A DNA stretch of 64,000 nucleotides. Origin: Sphingomonadales bacterium (GTDB taxonomy: Bacteria > Pseudomonadota > Alphaproteobacteria > Sphingomonadales > Sphingomonadaceae). Positions 11,614-16,548 of the stretch are shown here, piece after piece (the stretch's first letter is position 1; every line of letters starts with the position of its first letter). The translations under genes were made by a program, and so were the position numbers. The notes below the pieces were generated by a model, which saw only the letters and a program-made list of their open reading frames with translations, was not told where the DNA came from and ran no database searches. The DNA lies in NCBI GenBank assembly GCA_043771985.1, contig JAYVGQ010000100.1, forward strand, positions 19,700 to 83,699, written 5' to 3'.

Positions 11614-12750
11614 ATGGCAATATCAGACATCAATGCCGCCTTCGATAGCGGCAACATCATCGTCCACTCCATCACCGGCGCAGCGGCAACACTTTCGATT
11701 CGTAAAGACCGCGAATCGGAATTTGCGCAATGGTTCCATTTCCGCGTTGCGGCGGAACCGGGCGTGGAGATTACCCTCAAACTCACCGGCATGGAAAGCA
11801 GCGCCTATCCCGGCGGCTGGCCCGATTACCGGGCTTGTGTGTCCGAGGACCGCGATTATTGGGACCGCGCTGATACGGAATATGACAAAGGCGCAGACGG
11901 CGGCACGCTGACCATCCGCTACACCTCAGTCAGCGGCTTGGCATGGTTCGCGTATTTCGCACCGTATAGCATGGAGCGGCACCATGATCTGATCTCTGAC
12001 ACAGCGGGCCTAGAAGGCGTCGAATACCGCTGCCTTGGCCATAGCCTTGAAGGGCAGCCGATTGATTGCCTGGAAATGGGCAGCGGCGATACGCAGGTCT
12101 GGCTCTATGCGCGGCAGCATCCCGGCGAAAGCATGGCGGAGCATTGGGCCGAGGGTGCGCTCGATATGCTGACCGACCCTGCCGACCCGCATGCGCACAA
12201 ATTACTGGAAAAATGCCGCATCCATATTGTGCCAAACTGCAACCCCGATGGCAGCTGGCGCGGGCATCTGCGCACCAATTACGCTGGCGTAAACCTGAAC
12301 CGCGAATGGGCCGAGCCAAGCGCCGAACGCAGCCCCGAAGTATTGTGCATCCGCAACGCGATGGATACCACCGGCGTGCATTGGGCGATGGACGTCCACG
12401 GCGACGAAGCCATTCCCGCAGCCTTCATGGCAGGCTTTAACGGCATCCCGTCTTGGACCGACGATCAAGGCGAACGCTACCAGACTTTCATCGACCGGCT
12501 GGCGGCACGCACCCCCGATTTCCAGACCAAGCTGGGCTATCCGGTGTCGGGCAAAGGCAAAGCGAACCTGACGATGTCCACCAACCAATTGGCGGAACGG
12601 TTTGGGCCGTCGCACGGCTGTGTTTCCATGACGCTGGAAATGCCTTTTAAGGACACCATCGACAACAACGACCCTGACCAAGGTTGGTCGCCCGAACGGT
12701 GCAAGCTGTTGGCTCGGGAGTGTTTGGCAACTTTGTCGGAGTTGGTTTGA
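11614..12750 (+). CDS. M14 family zinc carboxypeptidase (cytosolic carboxypeptidase-like)
   Basis: RQHPGE, PNCNPDG, NLNREW, DVHGDE, TLEMPF motifs. Confidence 0.9.
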
Positions 12751-12944
12751 TGCTCTTTAGGGCAAATCGAATACAAAGTTTTAACAACAGCGAAATGATT
12801 GGTTGATTGTTAATTATCAAATCGGCAATTTCTTGGATGCAGGGCATGATCATCGTGTCGTTCCTCTATAGATTGTAGAGGGATTTACTTACGTCTTACA
12901 CAGAGTTCCGACGGCAATTATATACTTGAGTGAGCAGAATTACT

Positions 12945-13157
12945 ATGTCACAAGATTCGAGACAGGCCGGTGCTAGAATTAGAATTACTCCGCAGATGTT
13001 AGCGGCGGGAGAGGATTACGCTTTTGAACAGCTTCAAGAAGTTCCTCTTTCAGAATTTTCCGTTCGTCAGATAGTATCCGGAATCCTGCGCGCTGCGCTA
13101 ACTGCCGAAACCGGTCTCGATGACCGGGGTCATTTTGCTCGACAAAATCATCTCTAA
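12945..13157 (+). CDS. Small IS passenger protein (ITPxMLxAG motif)
   Basis: 70-aa ORF starting just inside the left IR, RIRITPQMLAAGED; overlaps the 3' end of the opposite-strand cargo gene. Confidence 0.5.
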   Translation: MSQDSRQAGARIRITPQMLAAGEDYAFEQLQEVPLSEFSVRQIVSGILRAALTAETGLDDRGHFARQNHL

Positions 13158-13641
13158 GGTCCGCTAGATCAATAACTAGAATCGTGGTGTCTTGGATTAG
13201 GTGAGTAAGATAGGCTTGAAAATCTTGTCCTGCTAATTTGCTCGGTTTTGAAGGGTTAATCGCTACAATTCTTGGCGGGACAGCGGCCTCAAAAATCTCA
13301 AATATTGTGTGAACGGTTGCATTGCGTTTGCCTGATAGCGCGTTGGTTCTGGCGTTTAGCTGGCCAATGCGCTTTAGCACTCGCCGCCGAGCATGATGCT
13401 CCGGATTCCTAGCTCGCAGTTCTTTGGGGTCGAATTGTAGAGTTATAGGGGCAATTGTAGTTATCAGTTGGCGTTGCATCGATCCTGTTTGAAACATGTT
13501 ATAAATCGCGTCAATTACGGCACGATCAGCCCCCGGTATCAGTCCGGTGCATATCAAATACCAAAGCTCCTCAACTTGGTTCCAAAGCGACGAAGTTTCA
13601 CCTACAAGGGCGTGTATTTCTTTTAATTCGGAGACAATCAT
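12985..13641 (-). CDS. IS passenger protein, putative HEPN-like RNase
   Basis: 218 aa, predicted helical; N-terminal LVGETSSLWNQVEE (E24) and R106-N-A-T-V-H111 (Rx4H) motif. Confidence 0.55.
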   Translation of the reverse strand: MIVSELKEIHALVGETSSLWNQVEELWYLICTGLIPGADRAVIDAIYNMFQTGSMQRQLITTIAPITLQFDPKELRARNPEHHARRRVLKRIGQLNARTNALSGKRNATVHTIFEIFEAAVPPRIVAINPSKPSKLAGQDFQAYLTHLIQDTTILVIDLADLRDDFVEQNDPGHRDRFRQLAQRAGFRILSDERKILKEELLEAVQKRNPLPPLTSAE

Positions 13642-13786
13642 GACGGCTCAATCAAACGGAGATGGCACCTATTCCGAAGCGGAAGCAGAGGCCCGTCGAG
13701 AGGCGGCATTAAAGCAAATGTTTGCCACCCCTCACAAGCCGCACAAGGCTAGCAAAAAGGATGACAAAGAGTCTCGCGGAAAATAG
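13640..13786 (+). CDS. Small IS passenger protein (LKxMFxTPHKPH motif)
   Basis: 48 aa MTAQSNGDGTYSEAEAEARREAALKQMFATPHKPHK...; SD GGAG at 13630-13633. Confidence 0.6.
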   Translation: MTAQSNGDGTYSEAEAEARREAALKQMFATPHKPHKASKKDDKESRGK

Positions 13787-13848
13787 CGGGGGTAACTACG
13801 TGTGAGCATGGGCTTAGAATTGCGCCATGCCTATATCTATCCCTTGCC

Positions 13849-14076
13849 TTATGGATTTTGCCTCTGAATCAGATTTGATGCAGTCAAAAGTTCAGCTGCG
13901 GTCTTTTCGTCGCCATGCTCGTAAAGCAGCGCAAGCTCCTTTAATATCTCCGCATATTCAGCCGAATTTTCCGACGTCAAAAGACCGTCCTTCCACATTC
14001 GCAGAGTTAATCCGGCTGTCAATTTTGTAAGCAGGCCAATAATTTTTGCAAGTCCGACTAGTCTTTCATCAACCAT
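13849..14076 (-). CDS. Small IS passenger protein, hypothetical
   Basis: 75-aa helical ORF downstream of and co-oriented with the transposase; purine-rich SD-like leader. Confidence 0.55.
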   Translation of the reverse strand: MVDERLVGLAKIIGLLTKLTAGLTLRMWKDGLLTSENSAEYAEILKELALLYEHGDEKTAAELLTASNLIQRQNP

Positions 14077-14123
14077 AATATCGCTTTCTCTTTTCGCCTA
14101 TCTCTAAAGGTATCACAGCCGTC

Positions 14124-15032
14124 TTAGGCGGCGATTTTGTCAGTCCGCCGATATGTGAGGCGCTTGCCTTCCATGCCCTTCACGATGACCGCAGCGCGCT
14201 CGCTGTCAGTTAATTCGCGGGTGTTGTAACGAAGGTCGAATTCTTTGCAGTAGCGGCAAAGGTGCGCTTCGCTCATATGGTGATAGGTGCCGATGACGCC
14301 GCGCTTGAATATCGAAAAGAAGTTTTCTGCGGTGTTAGAGTGCTTGTAACCGCCAAGGCCGGTGAACTGCTTTGCGCTGTGATTGACCGAATAGTGAGCG
14401 CCAAATTCACGACCGACGCCTTTATAGATGGGGCTTTCATCGGTCATAAGATGGGCGCTGCGATCTACATTGGTAACAAGCAATGCGCGGACGTTCTTTG
14501 CATTGACGTTGGCAACGTGAAAGCTGCGAACATGGCCTTCACGCTCGACAAGGGCAACAACGGCCTTCTTGGGAGCGGGACGGCTATGAGCACGATTACG
14601 GGCCTTGCCTCCTACATAGGTTTCGTCGGCTTCAACTACGCCGCTGCCACCACCTAGAGGGCCGGTGTCGGTAGCACCGTCCATTGCTTCGCGGATGCGG
14701 TGGCAAAGGAACCATGCTGTTTTGTAAGTGACGCCGATCATACGGGCCATTTGGCTTGCGCTCATGCCCTTCTTTGAAGCGGCCATGATGTGCGTTGCCA
14801 GCAACCACTTGTGCAAAGGAATGTGGCTGCGCTCCATGACGCTACCAGTGCGCACGGTGAACTTGTCGCGGCAATCGTTGCAAAGGAACATGCCAGCCTG
14901 TGTCTTGCCTTCCATACGGCGGACGCGGGTTGAACCACAGTGAGGGCAGAACACTCCATCAGGCCAGCGCGATGCTTCCAAATGGGCGGTTGCTTTGGCT
15001 TCGTCGTGAAAAATAGGGGCTGCAATGTTCAT
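14124..15032 (-). CDS. IS1595 family DDE transposase
   Basis: Zn ribbon CPHC...CNDC, HTH, catalytic motifs EADETY, MTDE, NTAENFFS, YHHMS...LCRYCKEFDLRYN; frame uninterrupted. Confidence 0.95.
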   Translation of the reverse strand: MNIAAPIFHDEAKATAHLEASRWPDGVFCPHCGSTRVRRMEGKTQAGMFLCNDCRDKFTVRTGSVMERSHIPLHKWLLATHIMAASKKGMSASQMARMIGVTYKTAWFLCHRIREAMDGATDTGPLGGGSGVVEADETYVGGKARNRAHSRPAPKKAVVALVEREGHVRSFHVANVNAKNVRALLVTNVDRSAHLMTDESPIYKGVGREFGAHYSVNHSAKQFTGLGGYKHSNTAENFFSIFKRGVIGTYHHMSEAHLCRYCKEFDLRYNTRELTDSERAAVIVKGMEGKRLTYRRTDKIAA

Positions 15033-15150
15033 GGCTTTGTTCCTTGTGAAGCCTGAATAGCAAAGTCAGTCTGCTAAGTAAAGTATATAATTGCCGTTCC
15101 GACAGGCTTTTGCCCTCAACCGGACGCAACCTATATAAGGTCTTAGAAAA

Positions 15151-15732
15151 ATGGACACGCGACCATCGATAGGCGAAGCGCTTTCGCGAGCTAGGCGCGT
15201 CTTGGACGAAGCGCGTGCTATGCAATATACTACCCCTGACTCTGATGGTCCTTTCGACGGCGAAGATTTGGACGATCCTAAGCTAATGTCACAGCTTATG
15301 GCGGTGGCACGACATCGAATTCTTTGTCTTCCTGATGTTACAGAGGCCCTTCAAGCGGTTCATGCATTACTAATTCGCACTTGGGTGAAAGGAAATGAAC
15401 GCACGAACAGATGTCGGGCGAAATCGTCATCATTGAATCTTTACCGTGTCGCGAACACCGCAGGGAACGATATAAAAATCCTAGCGGAGAGTGCTGATTG
15501 TGCGCGATTTTTTGCTTATGATTCAGGTCATGTTAGAGAAGAAAAAAATGCCTCCGTTTTCCTTTATGATGAACAGCAATTAGCGGAACTCAAGATTTCA
15601 GGTTCTGCGACTGGAAGAGCAATCCGTGAAGGAGTTCCGGGAGTCCTCAAGTCAGTGGGGTCTGGAATTGTAATTGAACAGGCTGGAAAAGTATATGTTC
15701 CGTTGACAGTTATCGACCCCGCAAAAAACTGA
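15151..15732 (+). CDS. Hypothetical protein (AT-rich islet)
   Basis: 193-aa ORF with no recognisable motif; visibly more AT-rich than the flanking core genes. Confidence 0.65.
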   Translation: MDTRPSIGEALSRARRVLDEARAMQYTTPDSDGPFDGEDLDDPKLMSQLMAVARHRILCLPDVTEALQAVHALLIRTWVKGNERTNRCRAKSSSLNLYRVANTAGNDIKILAESADCARFFAYDSGHVREEKNASVFLYDEQQLAELKISGSATGRAIREGVPGVLKSVGSGIVIEQAGKVYVPLTVIDPAKN

Positions 15733-15736
15733 CGTT

Positions 15737-15770
15737 CCGGTGATGGATTTCTGTTTTCGGGGAAATAGTG
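15737..15770. repeat. Degenerate right arm of a REP-like element
   Basis: CCGGTGATGGATT is identical to 38279-38291 inside the ImuB REP and is followed by a decayed TGGATT...TTCGGGGAAAT arm. Confidence 0.45.
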
Positions 15771-15875
15771 GAGAAGTTACGGAGCATTCTAGTGAATACA
15801 GCCCGAAGCGAATAGTCGAGGAATTTTAGCAGCTCGCCCTTGACAATGCGTCCAAATCTGGCGACCTCCTTTGCC

Positions 15876-16061
15876 ATGAAAATTGCAACCTTCACAGAAA
15901 TCTCCAAAGATTTTCACGCTGCAATGGACCGTGTAATTGACGATCATACGGCCATCGCGATTACGCGAAAGGGCGGCAAACCTGTCGTACTGCTCAGTCT
16001 TGAGGATTGGAATTTTTTCCAGTCGAAGATCGGTGGCGAATTAACTATCATCTCCGATTAA
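15876..16061 (+). CDS. Phd/YefM-family antitoxin, short, with no adjacent toxin
   Basis: FTEISKDFHAAMDRVIDDHTAIAITRKGGKPVVLLSLEDWN matches the YefM N-terminal DNA-binding domain; only 61 aa; TTGACA at 15840-15845. Confidence 0.75.
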   Translation: MKIATFTEISKDFHAAMDRVIDDHTAIAITRKGGKPVVLLSLEDWNFFQSKIGGELTIISD

Positions 16062-16068
16062 CCCGCCC

Positions 16069-16548
16069 ATGCACATCACCCCCGACGACCTAACCGGCCC
16101 AGAAATCCGCGCCCTCCTTGAAACCCATTTTGCCGGAATGTTGGCGAGTTCGCATGTGGGGTCTTGTCACTTTCTGGACTTTGAGGGGTTGAAGGGACCG
16201 GGGGTTTCGTTTTGGTCGGTGTGGACTGATGCTGGTGCGGACGCAGCGTTGATGGGGTGCGGGGCGGTGAAGGAACTTGATCCCAGTCACGGCCCAAAAC
16301 ACGGTGAGATCAAATCGATGCGGACGCATGCCGATCATTTGCGCAAAGGCGCGGCGGCGGCGATGTTGGAGCATATTATCGCGACTGCGCGGGAGCGCGG
16401 CTTACGGCGGTTGAGTTTGGAGACAGGATCGACACCAGACTTTGACGCGGCGCATGGGTTGTATCGGCGTTACGGCTTTGAATACTGCCCGCCCTTTGGC
16501 GATTATGTCGACGACCCGTTTAGCCGGTATATGACTTTGGTGCTTTGA
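16069..16548 (+). CDS. GNAT N-acetyltransferase (YsnE-like)
   Basis: GCGAVKEL, HGEIKSMRT, HLRKGAA, LSLETGS, LYRRYGF. Confidence 0.88.
   Translation: MHITPDDLTGPEIRALLETHFAGMLASSHVGSCHFLDFEGLKGPGVSFWSVWTDAGADAALMGCGAVKELDPSHGPKHGEIKSMRTHADHLRKGAAAAMLEHIIATARERGLRRLSLETGSTPDFDAAHGLYRRYGFEYCPPFGDYVDDPFSRYMTLVL

Follow-up and report, generated by a model that had tools for sequence, protein, structure and literature searches.

Does the IS1595-family insertion sequence (IS) found in 64,000 nucleotides of a Sphingomonadales bacterium (assembly GCA_043771985.1, contig JAYVGQ010000100.1, positions 19,700 to 83,699; this whole stretch is here called the window) carry true passenger genes, can it move and exchange them, and what might they do? 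Transporter ISs (tISs) are the smallest known vehicles that move genes beyond their own transposase, and are little studied. The element in question occupies window positions 12913-15095, i.e. 2183 bp, between two copies of a direct repeat. As judged by comparison of sequences, it is an intact ISNwi1-type tIS of the IS1595 family that inserted as a single unit of this length between genes, at an AT-rich site in a chromosome of Sphingomonadales type, duplicating 8 bp, and an element-free version of the locus is still circulating in related populations. By the same comparisons it is modular, with a fixed transposase-side inverted repeat (IRR) and transposase, a fixed c0 core and a fixed cargo-side inverted repeat (IRL, often with the start of c1), together with two variable slots, A (orf75) and B (orf218), and slot B changes its content at a much higher rate than that at which the transposase diverges. 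The reading that we favour as a whole, and hold to be probable, is of a mobile, modular tIS with exchangeable, HEPN-like, stand-alone cargo and with c0 as a core gene. Its features are as follows, in window coordinates.

12905-12912, no strand: left 8-bp target-site duplication, GTTCCGAC (read from the sequence; the single copy kept in empty-site contigs).
12913-12947, plus strand: IRL, the cargo-side terminal inverted repeat, GGCAATTATATACTTGAGTGAGCAGAATTACTATG (inverted-repeat search; its terminal 15-mer also ends 61 related elements).
12945-13157, plus strand: c1, 70 amino acids (aa) from the ATG at 12945, or 75 aa from the GTG at 12930 (motif in 26/61 elements; clusters c1 and c8).
12976-13666, no strand: variable slot B, i.e. 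orf218 and a few flanking bases (sister elements L016 and L100 cease to be homologous at 13667).
12985-13641, minus strand: orf218, the slot-B gene, for a predicted all-alpha protein with R106-N107-x3-H111 (homologue alignment and AF2 model).
13640-13786, plus strand: c0, a 48-aa open reading frame (ORF) divergent from orf218 (in 58/61 elements).
13849-14076, minus strand: orf75, the slot A gene, function not assigned (4 homologue clusters, 70-95% identity).
14124-15032, minus strand: IS1595-family DDE transposase, 302 aa, with an N-terminal CxxC...CxxC zinc ribbon (Pfam, NCBIfam).
15061-15095, minus strand: IRR, the transposase-side terminal inverted repeat, 63 nt upstream of the transposase ATG (inverted-repeat search).
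15096-15103, no strand: right 8-bp target-site duplication, GTTCCGAC (empty-site joint 12904->15096, with 8 shared letters).

Element boundaries and the empty site

The zinc-ribbon DDE transposases of the IS1595 family bind inverted ends of ~26-35 bp, cut, and join them to a target staggered by 8 bp, and the boundaries of the present element conform to this pattern. Both tips read GGCAATTATATACTT in inverted orientation, with an identity of 15/15 that continues as 23/26, i.e. the 26-bp repeats with three mismatches of the preliminary description, and then as 29/35; the inverted-repeat search itself reported 37 nt at 84%, since it took in 2 nt of the duplication that happen to pair. The exact 15-mer of the tips has just these 2 copies in the window. 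We estimate that chance would give ~0.3 exact 15-nt inverted pairs within 5 kb per window; for the abutting perfect 8-bp repeat, identical on both sides of the element as had been described, a further factor of 1/65,536 applies. The transposase stop and the element end are 1211 bp apart, and the four ORFs previously counted in this interval are all present, each conserved elsewhere. No Rfam family was found in 12500-16200, and a scan for sigma-70 promoters and terminators gave no excess over shuffled sequences.

Two metagenomes from freshwater sediment (runs X5 and X8) provide an uninserted form of the locus, in contigs that join 12904 directly to 15096. The joint omits 2191 bp, corresponding to the element and one copy of the repeat, with 8 letters that fit both sides, and the X5 contig has 1 mismatch in the 269 nt of its left flank and extends for 83 nt on the right. 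Such an exact joint is the empty site in related strains by which the preliminary description proposed that its claim be checked, and the coexistence of an empty allele with nearly identical flanks lends support to its suggestion that the element is active and recent. It also bears on the definition of a tIS, i.e. that passengers lie inside the inverted repeats and move with them as one unit, since all of the extra ORFs are included in the 2183 bp (plus 8 bp) that the joint removes. No empty site was present among the reads and contigs from the community of the window itself (X1-X4), the joint being seen in X5 and X8 alone. In two of these runs (X1 and X2) the sequencing depth of the cargo equals that of the flanks, at ~16-21, and we therefore take there to be one element copy per genome. 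Exact-protein look-ups with the transposase and both flanking genes returned nothing beyond this locus and contigs that break off within the IS; megablast of the element against the PLSDB plasmids gave no match, and a protein search of PLSDB found relatives of <60% identity only.

Transposase and group assignment

The transposase reads from 15032 to 14124 without internal stops, so that the earlier account of it as uninterrupted stands. Its matches to Pfam Zn_ribbon_IS1595 (PF12760, 5e-12), Pfam DDE_Tnp_IS1595 (PF12762, 1.6e-32, profile positions 3-153 of 153) and NCBIfam transpos_IS1595 (NF033547, 186 bits against a cutoff of 75), taken with the inverted repeats and the 8-bp duplication, confirm the family. 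Across 65 transposases of 44-100% identity, a comparison that takes in plasmid-borne relatives (44-56% identity), the zinc-ribbon cysteines C29, C32, C51 and C54 are invariant, as are D136, D198, E236 and K243 (E+7), which make up a DDEK signature whose residues are assigned by conservation rather than from a structure. Purifying selection on the transposase clade is strong, with e.g. 98% amino-acid against 91% nucleotide identity. The nearest transposase among 185,579 species genomes is 92% identical, and public annotations of the relatives' transposases read 'IS1595 family transposase' and no more.

In the ISfinder table the ISNwi1 group is characterised by ends of the form ggnnatTAT and a DDEK signature, with passenger-carrying members of 1750-4750 bp. 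Both ends of the element read GGCAATTAT, matching this form, which together with the invariant DDEK residues agrees with the ISNwi1 group named previously; the ends of distant relatives are GGCAACTAT, GGCGATTGT and GGGGATTAT. The tIS concept is confined to the IS1595 and IS66 families (bioRxiv 10.1101/2021.05.26.445724). Because relatives of orf218 are ordinary chromosomal genes elsewhere, orf218 at least can be regarded as a passenger.

Relatives of the element

A scan of one genome per species gave 421 transposase relatives. Amongst the best 80 of these (66-92% identity), almost all of them from Sphingomonadales, 61 complete elements could be delimited, sharing the same terminal 15-mer, having perfect 8-bp duplications and measuring 1824-3691 bp. 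None of the 61 is free of cargo, the minimum being 870 bp past the transposase. Their common gene order runs from IRR through the transposase, optional ORFs (slot A), c0, a large ORF of 166-284 aa on the same strand (slot B) and, often, c1 to IRL. The GC content of their target duplications is 0.38, as against 0.60 in the 2-kb flanks, which suggests a preference for AT-rich, probably intergenic, target DNA.

Several members of the family show further features. A weak R-A-W-W-W-W-T-Y tendency is seen in the target duplications of the 61 elements (L016-L095). In Sphingomonas cremea G124 (L094, 2539-7481) two different members of the family stand in tandem, their transposases sharing 52% and 67% identity with that of the window, and AAGAGGCG is present three times, ahead of, between and behind them; the triple repeat indicates that one and the same 8-bp target received an insertion twice. 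Transposases 44-45% identical are found on Methylobacterium oryzae pMOC1 (L096) and on a Roseomonas marmotae plasmid (L099), where the cargo consists of a hypothetical gene, a PIN/VapC toxin gene and a small ORF. The Roseomonas element has GGGGATTAT ends and an 8-bp duplication, and no inverted-repeat pair was recovered for that of Methylobacterium. A Mesorhizobium relative (L098) measures 3816 bp. Isolates with a family member include Sphingobium xenophagum 4256 and Parablastomonas sp. CN1-191. A sister element of 1862 bp (L100-L107), 83% identical in the DNA of its transposase region, contains orf75, c0, a 69-aa remnant of the large ORF, and c1; its right flank is AAAGTTTC and its left flank either AAAGTTTC or GATAGAAA, and there are therefore either two copies of it or recombination between copies.

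Exchange of the slot-B gene

Sister elements whose transposases are 95-98% identical have large ORFs without detectable similarity to one another, and it is on this account that we consider slot B to exchange fast. None of the 14 pairs with transposases at least 90% identical shares a BLAST-similar large ORF, and the share of pairs that do so is 0-6% in every transposase identity bin down to 60%. The exchangeable cargo of the preliminary description, for which it had proposed a comparison of sisters, is thus borne out by unrelated genes beside near-identical transposases.

At the DNA level close sisters are homologous in three blocks only. One comprises IRR and the transposase with 40-170 nt beyond, another ~70-107 bp of c0 core sequence (window 13667-13773), and the third the terminal 24-97 bp on the IRL side. 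Position 13667 comes up as a boundary on three occasions, namely against L016, against L100 and at a contig joint of runs X1/X2. Homologous recombination between the conserved blocks of co-resident family members would be the simplest mechanism of exchange.

The contig from X1/X2 joins 12975 to 13667, omitting orf218 and its immediate flanks, with 22 nt only on one side, and may represent either an element whose slot is empty or a match by chance. The same community holds a second family member (scaffold L109, 1-1530) with a different 173-aa ORF, containing R-H-D-L-V-H, and a different left flank. Against window 14109-14751 it is ~85% identical; all 95 mismatches lie to the left of 14751, and from 14752 on, including the right junction, identity is 100%. 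That L109 is the same insertion with different cargo was considered and rejected, the mismatches being confined to one side; it is therefore a chimera or a recombinant of two family members, with the changeover inside the transposase gene.

The small genes c0, c1 and orf75

The product of c0 has a conserved core, TYSEAETEARREAALKRMLATPHKPHK (TYSEAExEARREAALKxMxATPHKPHK), followed by a basic tail, and the c0 ATG overlaps that of orf218 in the palindrome CATG. Since its third codon positions vary at 0.39, as against 0.17 at both first and second positions, c0 is coding, and a conserved DNA or RNA element in place of a gene was rejected on the ground that the third positions are more than twice as variable as the others. 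A large protein database holds 137 clusters of c0 proteins, all of them unnamed. When JGI metagenomes were searched with c0 alone, an IS1595 transposase stood convergent beside it in 32/35 loci with enough flank, and c0 therefore appears to belong to the IS rather than to the cargo. The '1.2 kb of cargo' of the preliminary description accordingly stands in part, in that passenger DNA is present in the form of orf218, but c0, which occurs in 58/61 relatives as well as at those 32 loci, looks like a core gene of the IS and not like a passenger.

The second small gene, c1, starts within the inner portion of IRL, reads inward from the inverted repeat and overlaps, on the other strand, the 3' end of orf218. 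Its N-terminal motif, DSRQAGAxIEITPEMIEAG (more loosely DSRQAGAxIxITPxMxxAG), is found in 26/61 elements, and its codon-position variability (0.24/0.20/0.44) marks it as coding. In slot A, orf75 is absent from most relatives. A homologue 88% identical to it always lies 47 nt past an IS1595 transposase, at the same spacing, in the 1862-bp sister element, and contigs in X1/X2 and in X4 omit the orf75 segment (13755->14123 and 13773->14109).

The orf218 product and the nature of the cargo

The orf218 family is unnamed, with 12 homologues in a set of 5.8 billion proteins and 74 cluster representatives in a set of 1.8 billion (~74 clusters at 50% identity). Four residues (G14, W27, R106 and H111) do not vary across 57 of its sequences, in which N107 is conserved to at least 90%; in the 12 nearest relatives R106, N107 and H111 are all without variation. 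The motif of HEPN ribonucleases (RNases) is Rx4-6H with a polar residue (N/D/H) after the arginine, placed where a long helix ends and runs into the following loop (PMC3710099), and the R-N-x3-H of orf218 has this form. An AF2 model of the protein (pLDDT 83, pTM 0.80) is all-alpha and would have helix 80-110 end with R106 and N107, with H111 opening the following loop, i.e. at the position of the motif described for HEPN proteins (PMC3710099).

Evidence from the other slot-B genes points in the same direction. An R[NHD]xxxH motif is present in 40/57 of the large ORFs, as against 3.8 expected from shuffled sequences. By hhalign, the orf218 family matches slot-B clusters c13 (97.5%), c15 (96%) and c4 (93%), and weak matches of other cargo clusters converge on the HEPN families DUF4145, MtlR, LA2681, Cthe2314, Apea, Swt1 and Csx1/Csm6. 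One sister cargo protein matches the MtlR structure 6kcr_A across the motif (E = 7e-6), and one member of the orf218 family gives a sub-threshold match to HEPN pEK499_p136 (E = 0.04). From motif, model and these profile comparisons we conclude that orf218 is a probable HEPN-like RNase.

Beyond the elements, relatives of orf218 are found without IS, c0 or c1 (L002, L006-L010, L015), and one homologue lies downstream of tatC. At two loci (L011 and L005) an IRL, or a decayed one, is kept beside the orf218 homologue. In several soil metagenome contigs, relatives that are 34-48% identical adjoin hfq-hflX-mazG genes; in L007-L010 hflX and mazG are its immediate neighbours on either side, and in L015 it is close by, with a MerR gene separating it from mazG. 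On the strength of this gene context the hfq-hflX-mazG region looks like a conserved chromosomal home of the family.

The favoured reading would then be as follows. The products of orf218 and of most slot-B genes may be HEPN-like, metal-independent RNases, which would act as stand-alone conflict or defence genes of abortive-infection type and, by benefiting either the host or the element, would help the IS to persist; c0 would be a core IS protein that regulates transposition or the expression of the cargo. A number of results weigh against this. Foldseek searches of the PDB and BFVD with the orf218 model found no HEPN structure (best E 0.38 and 0.037, respectively), orf218 has no family match in Pfam, NCBIfam or PADLOC (nor in PHROGs), and its family profile gave noise only against PDB sequences, so that neither orf218 nor its family has a significant profile match to a recognised HEPN family. 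The cargo tested matched none of the known defence families. No RNA runs that would report on expression were found. The window contains no second copy of the element, the survey of relatives covers the best 80 of 421 transposase loci, and the ORFs of those relatives were called mechanically. Finally, c1 occurs with large ORFs of R[NHD]xxxH type and with no others (25/40 against 0/17, Fisher p = 4.5e-6), a strict co-occurrence for which a role as partner or antitoxin is a better fit than a purely IS-core one.

This last observation is amongst those that favour the strongest of the alternatives, in which the extra genes form a toxin-antitoxin addiction module, with orf218 as an HEPN RNase toxin and c1 or c0 as its antitoxin, such that cells losing the element would be killed or arrested and the IS thereby stabilised, a function that has been proposed for the toxin-antitoxin pairs of Tn3-family transposons. 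The overlaps of c0 with the start and of c1 with the end of orf218, the PIN/VapC cargo of distant plasmid-borne family members, a Sphingopyxis homologue of orf218 in a toxin-antitoxin gene cluster, between an Xre-type helix-turn-helix gene and ParDE/VapBC genes, and the HEPN and PIN toxin passengers recorded in Tn3-family transposons (bioRxiv 10.1101/2021.05.26.445724) are all consistent with such a module. However, c0 and c1 lie on the opposite strand and are not operonic with orf218, and c0 is highly conserved while the large ORFs beside it are <15% identical, and accompanies non-HEPN cargo as well. Nor do the genes always occur together: 15 HEPN-type elements are without c1, the chromosomal orf218 relatives in L006-L010 and L015 have neither small gene, L012 has an intact orf218 homologue beside a broken c1 and a truncated c0, and the sister element L100 keeps both c0 and c1 despite its truncated large ORF. 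The three genes thus lack the arrangement of a type II system, in which toxin and antitoxin are adjacent and co-transcribed and the toxin is never found without its antitoxin. An addiction module consequently appears unlikely to us, and a stand-alone conflict or defence RNase would be the more likely role for orf218, with c0, and perhaps c1, as a putative IS-specific regulator.

Far less credible is that there is no true cargo, and that orf75, c0, orf218 and c1 all serve an unusually long IS as accessory proteins of transposition or as regulators: extra genes are indeed present in every relative (at least 870 bp), c0 is essentially confined to these elements and the gene order is fixed, but BLAST divides the large ORFs into >30 unrelated clusters, DUF3800 and MtlR-like proteins among them, and they are unrelated even at 98% transposase identity, orf218 homologues are chromosomal and far from any IS, and orf75 is missing in most relatives. 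The idea that the element is a fixed, immobile remnant whose flanking repeat records an old insertion, for which its single copy in the window, the 6/35 differences between the inner inverted repeats and the lack of an identical second copy in any collection searched might be cited, is likewise very improbable, given that an empty allele with nearly identical flanks co-exists with it, that the duplication is perfect, that the transposase is full length, keeps all its catalytic residues and belongs to a clade under strong purifying selection, and that the inner differences between IRL and IRR are conserved features of the family and not decay.

The surrounding locus

The IS lies in an islet (12752-16067) that is strain-variable and of low GC content, 0.45-0.48 as against ~0.58 outside. 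Also within the islet is a 193-aa ORF without family (15151-15732), the IS sitting 47 nt upstream of its ATG. A contig from X8 joins 12751 to 16068 with TCGTT in between, and that strain is therefore without the whole islet. A Phd/YefM-type antitoxin gene (15840-16061) stands 7 nt ahead of a GNAT acetyltransferase gene (16069-16548), and the two could be a GNAT-toxin pair with an unusual type of antitoxin; in the islet-less X8 strain the GNAT gene is kept and the Phd gene is gone.

Significance and comparison with known systems

This copy offers an empty site, dozens of sisters that differ only in their slots, and two unnamed, clearly coding small genes. The clade is accordingly a tractable system in which to study the capture and swapping of passengers, why members free of cargo are not found, and whether ISs this small disseminate defence or addiction genes of RNase type among the chromosomes of Sphingomonadales. 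At least three protein families that lacked annotation, namely c0, c1 and that of orf218, are defined by the analysis. The open literature searched does not link IS1595 elements to HEPN or toxin-antitoxin passengers and has ISNwi1 only in unrelated contexts, and the HEPN survey does not mention bacterial transposons. On these grounds the c0/slot/c1 architecture and the fast exchange of the slot appear to be undescribed in the open literature, whilst ISfinder or TnPedia may hold unpublished annotation.

Amongst known systems, the HEPN conflict RNases (Abi families, RnlA/LsoA, Csm6/Csx1, MtlR-like and integron-associated; Anantharaman et al. 2013, PMC3710099) share with the orf218 protein, as modelled, the R-[N/D/H]-x3-H at the end of a long helix, an all-alpha protein of ~200 aa, extreme divergence between families and an association with mobile elements. 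They differ in that orf218, of a family without a name, significantly matches no curated HEPN model or solved structure.

A second comparison is with the cassettes of chromosomal integrons, which likewise combine a fixed platform with one small, promoter-poor gene that is swapped at a high rate and are enriched for small, conflict-type genes; here, in contrast, there are no integrase and no attC-like sites, exchange appears to be homology-based, and each platform has one or two slots. In a bolder form, possible but open to considerable doubt, the clade would be a minimal, integron-like platform without an integrase, consisting of a 1-kb transposase module and two IS-specific small proteins that frame a single slot, in which HEPN-type RNase genes are swapped at the anchor blocks far faster than the vehicle evolves, with c0 and c1 as new regulators coupling cargo expression to transposition.

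The toxin-antitoxin pairs of Tn3-family transposons (HEPN, PIN, ParE and others; bioRxiv 10.1101/2021.05.26.445724) resemble the present case in placing a small, nuclease-type conflict gene inside the transposition unit, where it varies between relatives. Unlike those pairs, which are co-oriented two-gene operons by the resolvase, the large gene here lies between two small genes on the opposite strand, of which c0 does not vary with it, and the vehicle is a 2-kb IS rather than a replicative transposon of at least 5 kb.

Closest of all are the tISs of the ISNwi1 group, with which the element shares a single DDEK zinc-ribbon transposase, GGnnAtTAT ends, an 8-bp duplication, a length within 1750-4750 bp, and passenger genes downstream of the transposase and inside the inverted repeats; nothing contradicts its membership. 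The element itself is thus an ordinary addition to a known group of tISs, and it is the architecture found across its clade that is the interesting part.

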